Assembly: GCA_905215905.1 (NCBI GenBank)
Contig: CAJMRI010000010.1
Location: 2,838-66,837 of the forward strand
Direction of reading: 5' to 3'
DNA from: an uncultured bacterium
Lineage (GTDB): Bacteria > Actinomycetota > Coriobacteriia > Coriobacteriales > Coriobacteriaceae
Length of the DNA: 64,000 bases
Shown here: positions 2,256 through 60,318 of the stretch, piece by piece
How the letters are laid out: every line of letters begins with the position of its first letter
Position numbering within the stretch: position 1 is the first letter of the stretch
The notes under the pieces: generated by a model
What the model was told of the DNA's origin: nothing
The model's database searches: none
Seen by the model: only the letters and a program-made list of their open reading frames with translations
Position numbers and translations under genes: made by a program

Positions 2256-2447
2256 CCTGTCGTTGAATCAAATCGTACTATCAAAACCATTGTACGTAGG
2301 CGCTTTAGCGTCTCGAAGCACAATGGTATTGAGTTTTGCGGGTAGCAATATACTACGAAGATGAGTTAGTGTACAGTTGTACAGTATCTTTAATATCAGC
2401 AGGTCACAAAACCACAGCCCGCACAAATTAGCAATCCGAATAGTCAT

Positions 2448-2542
2448 TGGGAACGTTCTTAAACGACTAGTCAAACAAGAACGTCCCCGATGACTAAGGA
2501 GTGTCCCCAGGTGCCGGTAGAAAAGGAACGTCCCTAACTGCC
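2448..2542. repeat. Cluster of GAACGTCCC/GTGTCCCC short repeats, including copy 1 of a 47-bp direct repeat (2496-2542)
   Basis: GGGAACGTTCTT...AAGAACGTCCCC inverted pair; 2496-2542 matches 4933-4979 at 44/47 nt. Confidence 0.8.
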
Positions 2543-2570: not shown

Positions 2571-2739
2571 ACGCCGATGTTTTGGCGCAGACAGCGAAAG
2601 CCCGCCAGAGCGAGCAAGGTGCCTTGAAACGAGGCGGCATTGACCTTCTGGTCATGCCGCCGAAGCTGAAAGGCAGATTGCCGCCCTGGCGGGCTTGCAG
2701 CGTCGAGTAGTTACGCGGTTCGTAGAACCGCGTAACTAC
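2571..2739. repeat. Rod-hairpin intergenic element, copy A
   Basis: Near-gapless alignment to 58821-58990 with compensatory changes; terminal hairpin GTAGTTACGCGGTT-CGTAG-AACCGCGTAACTAC. Confidence 0.9.
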
Positions 2740-2743
2740 CAAA

Positions 2744-4768
2744 CTACATAAGCTCGCAGACAGCTGCTGCGAAGGCAACGGGGTCCTCGGGGAGGATGCC
2801 CTCGACCAGCAGGGCCTGATCGTAGAGCAAGCCGGAGTACTGCTTGATCTTATCGGCGTCGCCTGCCTTCTGGGCAGCGACAAGCTTGTCAAAGACCGGG
2901 TGCTTGGCGTTGAGCTCGAGCACGCGCTGGCTCTTGGGCATGCCGTTGGGCGCGCCCTCGGGCCCCTTCTGGAGCACCTTCTCCATCTCGAGCGAAAGCG
3001 GACCCTCGGTGGTGATGCAAGCGGGGGCATCGGTCAGGCGCGCGGAGACGGCAACTTTCTCGACCTTGTCACCGAGCGCCTCCTTCATAGCGCTAAAGAG
3101 GTCCTCGTTTTCCTTGGTGGCGTCCTCGGCCTCCTTCTTCTCGTCCTCGGTCGCCATGTCAAGATCGCCGGTCGCGACGTTCTTAAGCTCCAGGTGACGA
3201 TCCTCGACCTCGGGCTCGGCACCATCGGCAACTGCCTTCTCGGCAGCCTCGCGAGCAGCGTCATCCTCGTAGACCTTGGGCATATCGGCAGCCACGTACT
3301 CACGCATGGCCTGGAAGGTAAACTCATCCACGTCCTGCGTCAGCAGCAGTACATCGTAGCCGCGGTCGAGCACGCCCTTCACGACGGGCATCTTGGCCAG
3401 ACGCTCGCGCGAATCGCCGGCGGCATAGTAGATTGCCTTCTGGCCCTCGGGCATGCCCTTGGCATACTCGGCAAGGGTGATCATCTTCTGCTCCTTGGCA
3501 GACCAGAACAGCAGCAGGTCGGCGAGCTCGTCGGCCTTCATGCCGTAGCTCGAGTAGATGCCGTACTTCAGACCGCGGCCAAAGTTCTCAAAGAACTTCT
3601 CGTATGCCTCGCGGTCGTTGTCGCGCATGTCCTCAAGGTCGGCGGTAATCTTCTTTTCCACACGCTTGGCGATAACCTTGAGCTGACGGTTCTGCTGCAG
3701 CGTCTCGCGCGAGATGTTGAGCGACACGTCGGCGGAATCCACGACACCGCGCACAAAGTTGTAGTAGTCGGGCAGCAGGTCGTCGCACTTCTCCATAATC
3801 AGCACGTTGGAGCTGTAGAGCGCCAGGCCCTTCTCGTAGTCCTTGCTGTACAGATCGAACGGGGCGCGGCCCGGCACAAACAGCAGGGCGTCGTACTCGA
3901 GCGTGCCCTCAGCATGGAAGCTGATGGTGCGTGCGGGATCGTCAAAGTCGTGGAACGTTGACTTGTAGAACTCGTCGTAGTCCTTCTGCTCGACATCGGA
4001 GCTGCGCTTTTTCCAGATCGGCGTCATTGAGTTGACGGTCTCGAGCTCCTGGTAGTCCTCGTACTCGGGCTTGTAGTCGTCGCCGGCGTCCTCGGGCTTG
4101 GGTTTCTGGCGGCTCTTGCTCACCATCATCTGGATCGGGTAGCGCACATAGTTGCTGTACTGCTGAATCAGGCTCTTGAGACCCCACTCGGTCAGGAAGC
4201 GATCGTAGGTCTCGGCCTCGCCGTCGGCGTCGAGCTTCTCGTTCTCGCGCAGCGTCAGGATGACATCGGTACCGTGCTCGGCGCGCTCGCCATCCTCGAT
4301 GGTGTAACCCTCAAGACCATCAGACTCCCACACGTGAGCGGTGTCCTCGCCATAGGCGCGGCTGACGACCTTCACATGGCTGGCGACCATAAAGGCCGAG
4401 TAGAAGCCCACGCCAAACTGGCCGATGATGTCGACATCCGAACCCTGTTGCTCGGCGTTCTCGGTCTTAAACTCCTCGGAGCCGGAATGGGCGATGGTGC
4501 CCAGATTGCGCTCGAGCTCCTCGGCGGTCATGCCAATGCCGTTATCCGAGATGGTAATGGTGCGGGCGTCTTTATCAAAGGAGACGCGAATAGCCAGGTC
4601 GCCCTGGTCGAGCTTGACGCTCGGATCCTGCAGGCTCTTAAAGTTGAGCTTGTCGACGGCATCGCTCGCGTTGGAGATAAGCTCGCGCAGGAAGATTTCC
4701 TTATTGGTGTAGATGGAGTTGATCATGAGGTCGAGCAGTTTTTTGCTCTCGGTCTTAAATTGACGCAT
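2744..4768 (-). CDS. htpG: Molecular chaperone HtpG (Hsp90)
   Basis: YTNKEIFLRELISNASDA, DNGIGMT, IIGQFGVGFYS, LNISRE motifs. Confidence 0.98.
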   Translation of the reverse strand: MRQFKTESKKLLDLMINSIYTNKEIFLRELISNASDAVDKLNFKSLQDPSVKLDQGDLAIRVSFDKDARTITISDNGIGMTAEELERNLGTIAHSGSEEFKTENAEQQGSDVDIIGQFGVGFYSAFMVASHVKVVSRAYGEDTAHVWESDGLEGYTIEDGERAEHGTDVILTLRENEKLDADGEAETYDRFLTEWGLKSLIQQYSNYVRYPIQMMVSKSRQKPKPEDAGDDYKPEYEDYQELETVNSMTPIWKKRSSDVEQKDYDEFYKSTFHDFDDPARTISFHAEGTLEYDALLFVPGRAPFDLYSKDYEKGLALYSSNVLIMEKCDDLLPDYYNFVRGVVDSADVSLNISRETLQQNRQLKVIAKRVEKKITADLEDMRDNDREAYEKFFENFGRGLKYGIYSSYGMKADELADLLLFWSAKEQKMITLAEYAKGMPEGQKAIYYAAGDSRERLAKMPVVKGVLDRGYDVLLLTQDVDEFTFQAMREYVAADMPKVYEDDAAREAAEKAVADGAEPEVEDRHLELKNVATGDLDMATEDEKKEAEDATKENEDLFSAMKEALGDKVEKVAVSARLTDAPACITTEGPLSLEMEKVLQKGPEGAPNGMPKSQRVLELNAKHPVFDKLVAAQKAGDADKIKQYSGLLYDQALLVEGILPEDPVAFAAAVCELM

Positions 4769-17767: not shown

Positions 17768-17844
17768 TGGTGCGGCGTATAGGATTCGAACCTATGACGT
17801 TCTGATTCGTAGTCAGACCCTCTATCCAGCTGAGGTAACGCCGC
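17768..17844 (-). tRNA. tRNA-Arg(ACG) copy 1
   Basis: 77 nt, anticodon loop CT-ACG-AA, CCA end. Confidence 0.97.
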
Positions 17845-17856
17845 GACTTGTTGATT

Positions 17857-17885
17857 ATTATGCACAGGGACTGAATAATGGTCAA
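17857..17885 (-). promoter_or_regulatory. Sigma70-type promoter of tRNA-Arg copy 1
   Basis: TTGACC-N17-CATAAT. The same arrangement precedes copy 2, and TTGACT-N17-TTTTAT precedes copy 3. Confidence 0.75.
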
Positions 17886-18033
17886 GCATTTTTTCAAAAA
17901 AAGTTATCGAATTTGATTTTTACTCATTTGATGCAGTCGATCGACTCGATACTTTCAAACACGGCGAAAGCAACTCCTCAAGTATGTCGACATATAAGAA
18001 AAGCCTCCGTTACCGGAGGCTTTAAAGTTCAGT

Positions 18034-18110
18034 TGGTGCGGCGTATAGGATTCGAACCTATGACGTTCTGATTCGTAGTCAGACCCTCTATCCAGCTGAG
18101 GTAACGCCGC
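18034..18110 (-). tRNA. tRNA-Arg(ACG) copy 2
   Basis: Identical to copy 1. Confidence 0.97.
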
Positions 18111-18263
18111 AACGCACGGATTATTATGCACGCGAGCCCCCGATGGGTCAAGCGACAATTTGAAAAATTTTTCCGAAGCGCTGATTAAGTTGTCGTGCGG
18201 ATCCGCACCGGCTTCGCCCGCCTAAAAGAAAAGCCCCCGTTGCCGGAGGCTTTCAAGTTCAAT

Positions 18264-18340
18264 TGGTGCGGCGTATAGGATTCGAACCTATGACGTTCTG
18301 ATTCGTAGTCAGACCCTCTATCCAGCTGAGGTAACGCCGC
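18264..18340 (-). tRNA. tRNA-Arg(ACG) copy 3
   Basis: Identical to copy 1. Confidence 0.97.
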
Positions 18341-55441: not shown

Positions 55442-55522
55442 CTAGCTCTCCTTTCATACTGAAAGCCTGCGAAGAGATGCAGGTGGAAACTTCAACTTTG
55501 TGAACATTCCTTACAAAGCGAG

Positions 55523-55620
55523 GGTTGTCCAAGTGCGGCAGATCGGCCCGAAAGAGGAGTGCCGCGTACTTTGGTACGCAAGCGACGAATGAGCGCCGAG
55601 GTGCCGTGCTTGGGCAAGCC
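55523..55620. repeat. Rod-like hairpin between pheS and pheT
   Basis: TTGTCCAAGTGCGGCA/TGCCGTGCTTGGGCAA, TCGGC/GCCGA, apex GCGTAC-TTTG-GTACGC. Confidence 0.75.
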
Positions 55621-55625
55621 GCAGC

Positions 55626-56702
55626 CTAGAACTGATTCAAGAAACGCATATCGCCTGTCATGAGCGTTCTGAGGTCGGGCAGGTCGTAGCGCAGGGCCGC
55701 GACGCGCTCGGCGCCAATGCCAAAGGCGAAGCCGGTGTACTTCTCGGGGTCGATGCCGCAGTTGATGAGGACGTTGGGGTCGACCATGCCGCAGCCCAGG
55801 ATCTCGATCCAGCCGCTGTGCTTGCAGAAGTTGCAGCCCTTACCGCCGCACACGTGGCAGCTCACGTCCACCTCGCAGGAAGGCTCGGTGAAGGGGAAGA
55901 AGTGCGGGCGGTAGCGCGTCTTGCGGTCCTCGCCAAACATGCACTTAACAAAGTAGTCGAGCGTGCCCTTCAGGTCGCCGAAGGTGATGCCCTCGTCGAC
56001 GACCAGGCCCTCGATCTGGTTGAACTGCGGCAGGTGGCAGGCATCGGCCGTGTCGGGACGGTAGACGGTGCCCGGGCAGATCATGTAGATGGGCGGCTTC
56101 TGCGACTCCATAGTGTGGATCTGCACGCCCGAAGTCTGGGTGCGCAGCAGCACGTCGGACTCGCCGTGGGCGTGAGCCTCGGGGTGCGCGACGCTGCCGG
56201 GGTTGTTGTCGACCACGTAGAAGGTATCGCGGGCCGAGCGGCTCGGGTGATCCATGGGAGCGTTGAGCGCGGTGAAGTTGTAGTAAGAGGTGTCGACCAT
56301 GGGGCCGGACTCGACGGTGTAGCCGATGCCGCAGAAGATGTCCTCGGCCTCCTCGATGATTTGCTTGATCAGGTGCTGGTGGCCGATCTGCGGACGGATG
56401 CCCGGCAGCGTGATGTCGACGGCGTCGTGCTCGAGTGCGCGCTTGAGGGCGGCGGCCTTCATCTCGGTGTTTCGCTCGTCGAGCATGCCCTCGATCAGCT
56501 GGCGCATCTCGTTGGCGCGCTTGCCCATCACGGGACGATCCTCGGGGGCGAGCTTGCCCATCATGCGCATCAAGCCGGTGATACGACCCTTGCGACCGAG
56601 CAGCTCAACACGCGCAGCCTCGAGCTTGGCGGCGTCATCGGCGCCTGCGACGAGCTCCTTGGCCTCTTCCTCGAGTTTGACCAGATCATCAATCAGACTC
56701 AT
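55626..56702 (-). CDS. pheS: Phenylalanine--tRNA ligase alpha subunit
   Basis: HPSR...DTFY, LRTQTS, FPFTEPS, GCGMV, GFAFGIG.ER. Confidence 0.98.
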   Translation of the reverse strand: MSLIDDLVKLEEEAKELVAGADDAAKLEAARVELLGRKGRITGLMRMMGKLAPEDRPVMGKRANEMRQLIEGMLDERNTEMKAAALKRALEHDAVDITLPGIRPQIGHQHLIKQIIEEAEDIFCGIGYTVESGPMVDTSYYNFTALNAPMDHPSRSARDTFYVVDNNPGSVAHPEAHAHGESDVLLRTQTSGVQIHTMESQKPPIYMICPGTVYRPDTADACHLPQFNQIEGLVVDEGITFGDLKGTLDYFVKCMFGEDRKTRYRPHFFPFTEPSCEVDVSCHVCGGKGCNFCKHSGWIEILGCGMVDPNVLINCGIDPEKYTGFAFGIGAERVAALRYDLPDLRTLMTGDMRFLNQF

Positions 56703-58820: not shown

Positions 58821-58990
58821 ACGCCAATGTCTTGGCAACGTCAGCGAAAACGACCCTAAGCGAGCAAGGTGACGTGAAATGAAAGGGCGCTGACCTTCTG
58901 GTCGCGCCCTTGAAATTGAACGTCAGATTGCCGCTTAGGGGCGTTTGCAGTGTCGAGCAGTTACGCGGTTTGGTAAAACCGCGTAACTAC
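58821..58990. repeat. Rod-hairpin intergenic element, copy B (overlaps the glmM stop codon)
   Basis: Homologous to 2571-2739 with compensatory substitutions. Confidence 0.9.
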
Positions 58991-60318
58991 AGAGCCTCGA
59001 GCGCGTTGGCAATGCGCTTCATGGCGGCATCGGCGGATGCTTGGTCGGGTGCCTCGGCCAGCACGCGGATAACCGACTCGGTTCCACTCTTGCGTACGAG
59101 CACGCGGCCCTCGCCTGCCAGCGCAGCCTCGGCCTCGGCGATGGCGTTCTGCACGCCCATGTTCTCGAGCGCGGCGTCCTTGTCCGCCACGCGCACGGCC
59201 ACCTGCGCCTGCGGCAGCAGCTTGCACGGAGCCGTGAGCTGCGAGAGCGTCTCGCGCTCGGCACGAATCACTTCCATCACGCGCAGCGAGGTCATAATGC
59301 CGTCGCCCGTGCGCTCGATATCGCCAAAGATCGTATGGCCCGTCTGCTCGCCGCCTAGGCTGTAACCGCCCTCGCGCATCTTGGCATACACGTGACGGTC
59401 GCCCACACCGCTGGTCACGGCACTTAGGCCGGCAAGCTCCAACGACTTGATCAGGCCAAAGTTGCTGGCAATCGTCGGAACCACGGTACCGCCCGAAAGG
59501 CGACCGTGCTTGTTCAGGTACACGCCGCACACGTACAGGATCTGGTCGCCATCGACCACGCGCCCGCGCTCGTCCACGGCCAGGCAGCGGTCGGCATCGC
59601 CGTCATAGGCAAAGCCCACGTCCAGGCCCTGCTCCACCACGTGGCGCTGCAGACGCTCCATATGCGTGGAGCCGCAGTCGACGTTGATGTTAAAACCATC
59701 GGGCGCGGCATTGATCACGCGCACGTCGGCGCCCAGCGCGTCGAACACCGGCTTGGCCACCGAGGACGCCGAGCCGTTGGCGCAGTCGATGCCGATCTTG
59801 ACGCCCTGCAGCGAAAAGTTCGCGCTGGCGATGAGCGAGGCAATGTAGCGGTTGCGGCCCTGCATGTAGTCCACCGTGGCGCCGATGTGGTTGCCCGTGG
59901 CCAGCGGCACCTCGCTCTTGCCATCGACGCAGTCCTCGATGAGCTCCAGTACGTCCTCGTCCATCTTAAAACCGTCGCTATTGACGAGCTTAATGCCGTT
60001 ATCGCAAAACGGGTTGTGGCTCGCGCTGATCATGATGCCGCAATCGAAGCAGCCTTCCACGGTCTGATGCGCTACGCCCGGCGTGGGGATCACGTGCAGC
60101 ATATAGGCGTCCGCACCGCTCGCGACCAGGCCACTCACCAGCGCCGCCTCGAACATATAACTCGAGCGACGCGTGTCCTTACCCACGATGACGCGCGCCT
60201 TGCGCTCGCGGTTGGCGCCGTAATACCAGCCCACAAAACGGCCAATCCTATAAGCGTGCTCTACCGTCAGCCCAACGTTAGCCTCACCGCGAAAGCCGTC
60301 GGTGCCAAAGTACTTCAT
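58987..60318 (-). CDS. glmM: Phosphoglucosamine mutase
   Basis: KYFGTDG.RG, SASHNP..DNGIK, DGDADR, GGEQTGH, RKSGTE..IRV. Confidence 0.9.
   Translation of the reverse strand: MKYFGTDGFRGEANVGLTVEHAYRIGRFVGWYYGANRERKARVIVGKDTRRSSYMFEAALVSGLVASGADAYMLHVIPTPGVAHQTVEGCFDCGIMISASHNPFCDNGIKLVNSDGFKMDEDVLELIEDCVDGKSEVPLATGNHIGATVDYMQGRNRYIASLIASANFSLQGVKIGIDCANGSASSVAKPVFDALGADVRVINAAPDGFNINVDCGSTHMERLQRHVVEQGLDVGFAYDGDADRCLAVDERGRVVDGDQILYVCGVYLNKHGRLSGGTVVPTIASNFGLIKSLELAGLSAVTSGVGDRHVYAKMREGGYSLGGEQTGHTIFGDIERTGDGIMTSLRVMEVIRAERETLSQLTAPCKLLPQAQVAVRVADKDAALENMGVQNAIAEAEAALAGEGRVLVRKSGTESVIRVLAEAPDQASADAAMKRIANALEAL

Follow-up and report, generated by a model that had tools for sequence, protein, structure and literature searches.

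What is the sequence of about 170 bp that adjoins the stop codons of both htpG and glmM in the window (the whole 64,000-nt stretch analysed here), which of its strands folds, and what brings it to gene ends? An earlier note, made from the letters alone, had described two copies, at 2571-2739 and 58821-58990, and had offered three options: a non-coding RNA, a 3′-UTR motif or a mobile element acting as single-stranded DNA. The last of these fits best, and we put at about one half the probability that this is a non-autonomous DNA element, encoded in its structure, which is directed to gene ends and whose copies conversion homogenises. The element itself is real, uncatalogued and order-wide.

Architecture, covariation and range

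Both copies are present where they had been placed, and their 99-nt rods align without gaps (Table 1). They differ at 29 positions; among the 40 rod pairs, 13 are compensatory, the number first counted, 24 are unchanged and in three one copy has a mismatch. The two rods agree at all 19 unpaired positions, so that the supposed invariance of the unpaired parts holds for this pair, but apex and internal loops vary across the family. The folding z-score is about -10 for both copies on either strand, and none of 200 shuffles was as good. The separate hairpin is real as well, with 15 bp instead of the 14 bp proposed; its CTAC end (GTAG on the other strand), which had been linked to REPs and RAYT nucleases, belongs to these two copies rather than to the family at large. 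Profile matches confirmed both host genes, htpG (NF003555) and glmM (TIGR01455), on the minus strand and with their stops abutting the element. The window also holds a third copy, overlooked before, which consists of the rod only and lies between pheS and pheT.

Table 1. Features in and around the element (window positions, except in the last row)
Feature	Position	Strand	Remarks
Copy 1, leader	2571..2591	+	about 20 nt, with loose conservation and little pairing (position profile of 161 distinct copies, alignment)
Copy 1, 5′ foot CAGCGA	2592..2597	+	near-invariant; IS1111-type IS110 insertion site in other copies
Copy 1, rod	2598..2696	+	40 pairs, purine-purine internal loops, tandem GA, TTCT apex
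Copy 1, 3′ foot GCAGCGTCG	2697..2705	+	near-invariant
Copy 1, small hairpin	2707..2739	+	core 2710-2736, GTT...AAC, GTA triloop
htpG, host gene of copy 1	2744..4768	-	stop 7 nt from AAC end
Copy 2	58822..58987	+	leader; foot 58842-58847; rod 58848-58946; foot 58947-58955; small hairpin 58960-58987, GGTA loop
glmM, host gene of copy 2	58987..60318	-	G of TAG is the element's last base (and the hairpin's); rod-less alleles have TAA
Copy 3, rod-only, older subfamily	55516..55625	+	between pheS (stop 55626-55628) and pheT; site also filled in two divergent Collinsella genomes
Separate palindromic repeat family	2441..2496		intact copies end in GTAG...CTAC; frequently lies 5′ of rod in Collinsella; outside the element
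IS110 at foot	G000 C38:1-1530 (L174); ends of C46, C29, C30; L361, L366, L367, L379, L380, L381		IS1111-type, at AG of CAGCGA

An iterated profile search gave 52 matches at E ≤ 0.01 in this Collinsella genome, hairpin-only pieces included, and a covariance model (R1) gave 47, of which 45 are distinct whole rods; the genome holds about 45-50 copies. The full unit, about 180 bases long, runs from a leader of about 20 nt through the foot CAGCGA, the rod, the foot GCAGCGTCG and a 5-nt linker to a hairpin of about 12 bp, GTT...AAC, and conservation begins about 20 nt before CAGCG in the profile of 161 distinct copies. The leader has no complement at the 3′ end, i.e. there are no terminal inverted repeats. 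Between the feet the rod measures 97-103 nt in 160 of 164 distinct copies, and about a third of the copies in this genome are rods only. In longer variants (loci L177, L178 and L179), additional hairpins with GNA loops interrupt the 5′ arm close to the apex, and extra hairpins inside or before some copies likewise have GNA loops.

The proposal of a structure-selected dispersed element is supported by covariation: 0.697 versus 0.180 after shuffling (29 of 33 pairs), and 0.738 versus 0.214 across families (34 of 38 pairs), the controls being shuffled and slid alignments and the alignment rows being related. One source of such a pattern could be neutral, if a quasi-palindrome acquired its covariation from template-switch repair with no selection on structure. 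Two-sided changes do far exceed one-sided ones, as intrastrand copying predicts, and tandem partial duplications of the element occur. However, template switching would erase mismatches, yet the purine-purine loops, the rod length and the feet are kept across four families while the stems turn over; neither would it give strand bias or stop-codon bias. The retained, strand-specific mismatches largely refute this explanation, which we hold to be extremely improbable.

Search of 151 genomes of the class with R1 found the element in 28 of 30 genomes of its own family, 19 of 24 of family f3, one of 13 of f6 and the single genome of f9, with only four weak matches elsewhere in the sample. Copy-rich genomes are G155 (44 matches), G149 (38), G019 (38), G056 (35), G089 (41) and G105 (49); further genomes are G338 (f5, 35), G392 (f6, 38) and G401 (f6, 20), the last of which had none by an exact pattern, whose picture of patchy copy number was therefore overstated. 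Since the named records that carry the element include, besides Collinsella, the genera Enteroscipio, Gordonibacter, Adlercreutzia, Rubneribacter and Aphodovivens, f3 is probably Eggerthellaceae; the closest named record is Collinsella aerofaciens. The element spans at least four families of Coriobacteriales, mostly at different genes. Outside the order, a phylum sample of 151 genomes gave no credible match, the sole one, at E 7e-4, sitting in coding sequence. A second order of the class yielded weak matches in two of its genomes, with nothing but the apex motif in common; of the distant repeats seen in that order (L352, L354, L355, L356), two lie beside tRNA genes. Phages gave no match, six matches in viral contigs being due to chance. 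One plasmid record carries the element with 10 matches (NZ_OY725717.1, L358), but at 900 kb and with housekeeping genes including tyrS, this C. aerofaciens record is probably a piece of the chromosome.

Against Rfam 15, the window has no match over the gathering threshold, copy 1 has only chance matches at E ≤ 10, and eight other loci have none on the element. The full-text literature searched, in which subscription journals are largely missing, gave no description of the family. Supplement table 1 of PMC8040213, with 39 mentions of Coriobacteriaceae and with its Eggerthellaceae rows covered in part, holds no long, highly covarying multi-copy entry, though a fragment may be listed. Just past a copy in G019, a 6S RNA-like Rfam match below the gathering threshold (36.4 bits, E 2e-4) lies on the minus strand of L104 at 1668-1831, and the flank of L110 is similar.

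Folding strand and position at gene ends

The folded strand, first considered ambiguous, is resolved by the positions that do not pair when only Watson-Crick pairs are scored. On the + strand of 42 rods these comprise A·G (262), G·T (82), G·G (61), A·A (27), A·C (23) and pyrimidine-pyrimidine (12), i.e. 350 purine-purine oppositions against 12 pyrimidine-pyrimidine and 82 G·T against 23 A·C, and bulges are purines in 124 cases versus 21. Because wobble, mismatch and bulge counts favour the + strand, the fold is that of the strand opposite to the abutted gene, and 164 distinct rods give the same signature. Predicted RNA energy is better on the folding strand in 40 of the 42 rods. As the mRNA strand is the worse-folding one, the 3′-UTR motif of the abutted gene that had been offered is disfavoured; it nevertheless has folding energies of about -40 to -85 kcal/mol.

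RNA prefers GNRA tetraloops. In the small hairpins of 103 distinct copies, GNRA is found six times, GNYA 76 times, a GNA triloop 18 times and another loop three times, a count that omits 18 further copies lacking a hairpin of 8 pairs and that, the copies being related, overstates independent events. Loops of the form G...A make up 100 of the 103, those of DNA type (GNA or GNYA) 94; among 53 ordinary terminator-like hairpins, none has a GNYA loop. GNA and GNNA loops, as well as tandem YGAR sheared pairs, are described as stable DNA motifs (PMC10085684). Against a DNA fold stand RNA-like signs outside Collinsella, where G·T reaches 7% of pairs (only 2.6% in the Collinsella set, which favours DNA), tandem G·T is conserved and cUUCGg is the commonest apex (19 of 67), UUCG loops being a sign of RNA (PMC2864571). 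It also counts against DNA that the folding strand serves as template in transcription and, in most cases, for leading-strand synthesis, and so is not the strand usually exposed. On balance, the fold probably acts as DNA rather than RNA, though by no wide lead.

If it acted as RNA, the folding strand could be a non-coding RNA, namely a scaffold for protein binding whose transcription runs towards the gene end and may extend into the complement of the stop region of the host mRNA, i.e. a scaffold with a flanking guide. The purine-rich internal loops, the tandem GA, the conserved tandem G·U and the cUUCGg apices mentioned above would suit it, and so would the fixed length, the invariant junction and the energy preference for the folding strand; the 94 to six loop count would not. 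Furthermore, no conserved promoter was found in the leader profile or by a scan at copy 1, many copies have just 30-50 nt before the next gene of the same operon, and no TnpB-type domain exceeds the cut-off in this genome. We judge such an RNA unlikely. Unstranded RNA contigs of three runs span pheS-pheT, where they contain a different insert of 148-158 nt, which tells neither strand nor transcript.

The geometry at gene ends is nearly fixed. In this genome, by a crude gene caller made for this analysis, a gene was called next to the folding strand's 3′ end for 48 of 50 matches. In 46 of these 48 that gene ends there on the opposite strand, its stop mostly lying between -1 and +7 relative to the AAC end; genes flanking the opposite side are mixed. 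An antisense gene end was found as well in G338 (10 of 10), G392 (9 of 10), G401 (9 of 9), G149 (19 of 20), G155 (16 of 18), G105 (8 of 10), G050 (6 of 6) and G089 (6 of 9), while one genus departs, with mixed orientation (G056 4 of 7, G019 1 of 6); the loci of the last five of the former and of this genus are the best-scoring ones plus 14 hand-picked regions, partly chosen as exceptions. Sense-oriented exceptions are L167 3364-3485, L171 1085-1204, L176 1020-1142 and L169 750-839, comprising hisA-hisF in two genera, a site after adk and one before ilvC; at the hisF site the small hairpin ends at the ribosome-binding site. The hosts are housekeeping genes and operon junctions. Hosts in other families are also hosts here in two of 35 cases, which is chance level, so that insertions have been independent, compared with four of nine within the own family. 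As host genes differ between families, the stop-codon geometry must have been reached independently many times.

Two simple targeting rules were rejected. Replication-strand targeting, hinted at by two one-contig genomes, is ruled out here, since orientation follows the gene strand and not the replication fork (36 of 46 versus a baseline of 74%, p 0.62). A fixed target of the TA or RelE-like kind is inconsistent with the varying stop position, and the under-use of TGA (1 of 45, p 0.08) is not significant. Neither a target-site duplication nor a fixed target motif is visible; at glmM and htpG no such duplication was seen either, but rod-less alleles there are not clean empty sites.

Another possibility is that the element is a cis signal in mRNA, a 3′-end barrier, intercistronic stabiliser or ribosome-stalling stem comparable to E. 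coli REP, ERIC or YPAL, which recombination would have spread and whose antisense fold would be a by-product. REPs near stop codons stall ribosomes. Here the element is flush with stop codons, the mRNA strand does fold, as noted, and rod-only copies lie solely between co-oriented genes (17 of 17), whereas full copies are split 14 to 14 with convergent pairs (14 of 28, p 2.5e-4); the pheS-pheT and hisF sites have been retained across species or genera. The wobble, mismatch, bulge and loop signatures, however, are all on the other strand, the hairpin has no U-tract terminator (none at the small hairpin of copy 1, with one weak 5-pair site in its leader), full copies are found inside operons in two genomes, and empty alleles are common at glmM. 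That the element is primarily such a signal is improbable in our estimate; a secondary effect on mRNA ends is possible.

Turnover and the search for a mobiliser

Occupancy of individual sites varies between genomes. At glmM, 12 genomes comprise three with the full element, one with a partial one and eight with none, the stop being TAG versus TAA. At htpG, eight of 13 close genomes have element sequence, whose visible rods fall into three subfamilies, and five have another repeat; these rod-less sites (L006, L008, L009, L011, L015) bear another hairpin repeat of about 65 bp and a short conserved tail at the stop. Among the sites listed for relatives, many others are occupied too, yet the rod found between the shared flanks is not the one seen here, a pattern pointing to conversion among copies. 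G338 and G392 contain genome-specific, closely similar copies. Many sites, such as pheS-pheT and hisF, are kept for long. Between strains, the last 12 coding bases differ by 17% in host genes versus 7.5% in other genes; of 19 host genes, 15 show the rise (p 0.047 in comparison with 37 other genes), a weak effect, marginal per gene, to which alignment bias may contribute. There is no kilobase mutation shadow, nothing being seen beyond the last 24-30 coding bases.

The link to GTAG and RAYT drawn in the earlier note does not survive. On this idea, the element would be a GTAG REP or REPIN moved by the RAYT-like HUH transposase of Collinsella. Such a gene exists here (L002 116-916, contig C42), with a C-terminal extension and a score below the NF047646 cut-off, and the family has homologues in 27 of its 30 genomes; of 26 other Collinsella, 24 have such a gene. 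The rod often adjoins a palindrome family ending in GTAG, and group 2 TnpA-REP requires a structure with conserved mismatches (PMC8266576). But a GTAG/CTAC tetranucleotide stands at the palindrome foot in only four of 31 hairpin-bearing copies, and the rod is absent from 33 RAYT/tnpA/TnpB-like loci, the gene of this genome included, with no REPtron-like flanking. Y1_Tnp was not found in the copy-rich G149, G155, G019 and G056, nor are G338, G392, G401 and G044 among the 98 of 201 genomes with a Y1_Tnp match, and these eight negative genomes hold about 17-44 copies each. Conversely, G075, G083 and G133 have RAYT homologues and no rod was found in them. A RAYT as mobiliser is very unlikely.

Searches for other enzymes gave no mobiliser. 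A reverse transcriptase, as a retro-element or group II intron derivative would call for, is absent here and present in three of 10 copy-rich genomes, not tracking the element; none of six TIGR02249 matches to integron integrase passes the cut-off; Y2 transposase of the IS91, ISCR or Helitron-like rolling-circle kind was found in none of 11 genomes, but as the control genomes gave no match either, this does not count against such an enzyme. No autonomous partner flanked by orphan element ends was found in this genome. IS110, considered as mobiliser, was rejected: close homologues occur in 20 of 151 genomes and are missing from G019, G056 and G105.

How, then, would the non-autonomous DNA element introduced above spread? 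The fold would work as DNA, and a structure-reading nuclease or recombinase, recognising the element as a folded single strand or as a cruciform arm, could place new copies at gene ends. These would be tolerated, with the reading frame spared and a weaker fold left in the mRNA, and existing copies would be homogenised by gene conversion. Against this picture count the lack of a mobiliser among the enzymes searched for, the absence of a visible target-site duplication or fixed target motif, the mixed orientation in one genus and the long retention of many sites. A bolder version, which we advance only tentatively and hold to be more doubtful, is that of a shape-defined mobile DNA in which a pair of template-strand hairpins would be put at stop codons by a host or other non-Y1 enzyme, with attC-like logic and no integrons, reinvading different genes in each family of Coriobacteriales and rewriting last codons.

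Known systems and insertion sequences at the foot

As a structure-defined repeat, the element works like REP and attC, yet it belongs to none of REP, CGTC REP, MITE or attC. With the GTAG REP/REPIN/BIME system and its RAYT (TnpA-REP) it shares the dispersed extragenic palindromes, often at stop codons, the conserved mismatches, mosaic clusters and the role of target for the IS110 family (PMC8266576, PMC3733652). It differs in its length of some 180 nt, two unlike hairpins, fixed orientation to genes, and lack of a GTAG tag, of an inverted doublet and of a cognate Y1 transposase among those found. Closer in some respects are CGTC REPs, with CGTC a few bases before the small hairpin and no dedicated transposase (PMC3733652). 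These have stems of 8-9 bp, loops of 4-5 nt and a CCA tail and are not reported there from Actinobacteria, the main text holding no term for Coriobacteriia or Actinobacteria (PMC3733652); our element has a stem of about 12 bp, with CGTC 5 nt away, no CCA tail and an upstream rod. How palindromic repeats can spread with no transposase of their own has been raised as an unanswered question for CGTC REPs (PMC3733652), and the element is a sharp test case for it in culturable gut bacteria, given its invariant feet, fixed length, single folding strand, fixed stop-codon geometry and many carriers with no Y1 enzyme.

YPAL/RU-2, ERIC, Correia and RUP are similar in size (100-200 nt), long stem-loops, intergenic position and co-transcription, YPAL being 168 bp with internal inverted repeats (PMC2229807). 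Unlike them, the element has no terminal inverted repeats, TA ends or visible target duplication, and it has deep covariation and an antisense fold. Integron attC sites lie after the stop codon, with the core order RYYYAAC...GTTRRRY. The hairpin of the element, GTT...AAC, is reversed relative to that consensus, the rod has the feet CAGCGA and GCAGCGTCG, and, unlike attC or CALIN, the copies are dispersed at housekeeping genes with neither cassette arrays nor an integron integrase over the cut-off. Common to both are the conservation of structure over sequence, one folded strand opposite the gene, unpaired bases that are kept, and targeting by IS1111-type elements (PMC2095811). Likenesses to group II intron DV, ribozymes, T-boxes, k-turns and CRISPR repeats were considered and dropped.

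An IS110 element (NF033542) has inserted twice in this genome, at AG of the CAGCGA foot (Table 1). Its subterminal inverted repeats and downstream non-coding region are the IS1111 layout (PMC11187229), and among 11 loci of close homologues, the junction is the element's leader or rod in seven, lies elsewhere in three and is cut by a contig end in one. Two segments of the non-coding region vary with the target variant and match it, in the manner of IS1111-group elements at REP or attC (ISPa11 and ISKpn4, PMC11187229; ISPpu10, preprint 10.64898/2026.03.19.712850), and they may be bridge-RNA guides. Unlike the known targets, the element is a new target family, and this IS110 is a passenger in only some carriers. 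With the guides in that putative role, the foot-aimed IS1111-type element would offer a natural pair of bridge RNA and target with covarying guides.

Other repeats lie close by. The GTAG...CTAC palindrome family of about 55 bp (Table 1; also L358 1080-1130 and 2460-2480, and L028-L038) is a better candidate RAYT substrate than the rod; half-copies of it abut the glmM stop, and a different IS110 sits inside one copy. A third repeat, at 2500-2545 of the window (also L368 and L383), is an imperfect palindrome of about 45 bp adjoining copy 1, with a further IS110 subgroup inserted in its copies. In G004, an IS200 tnpA element lies in the glmM intergenic region (L033). Elsewhere in the window, three tandem tRNA genes with identical scores occupy 17771-18340 of the minus strand.
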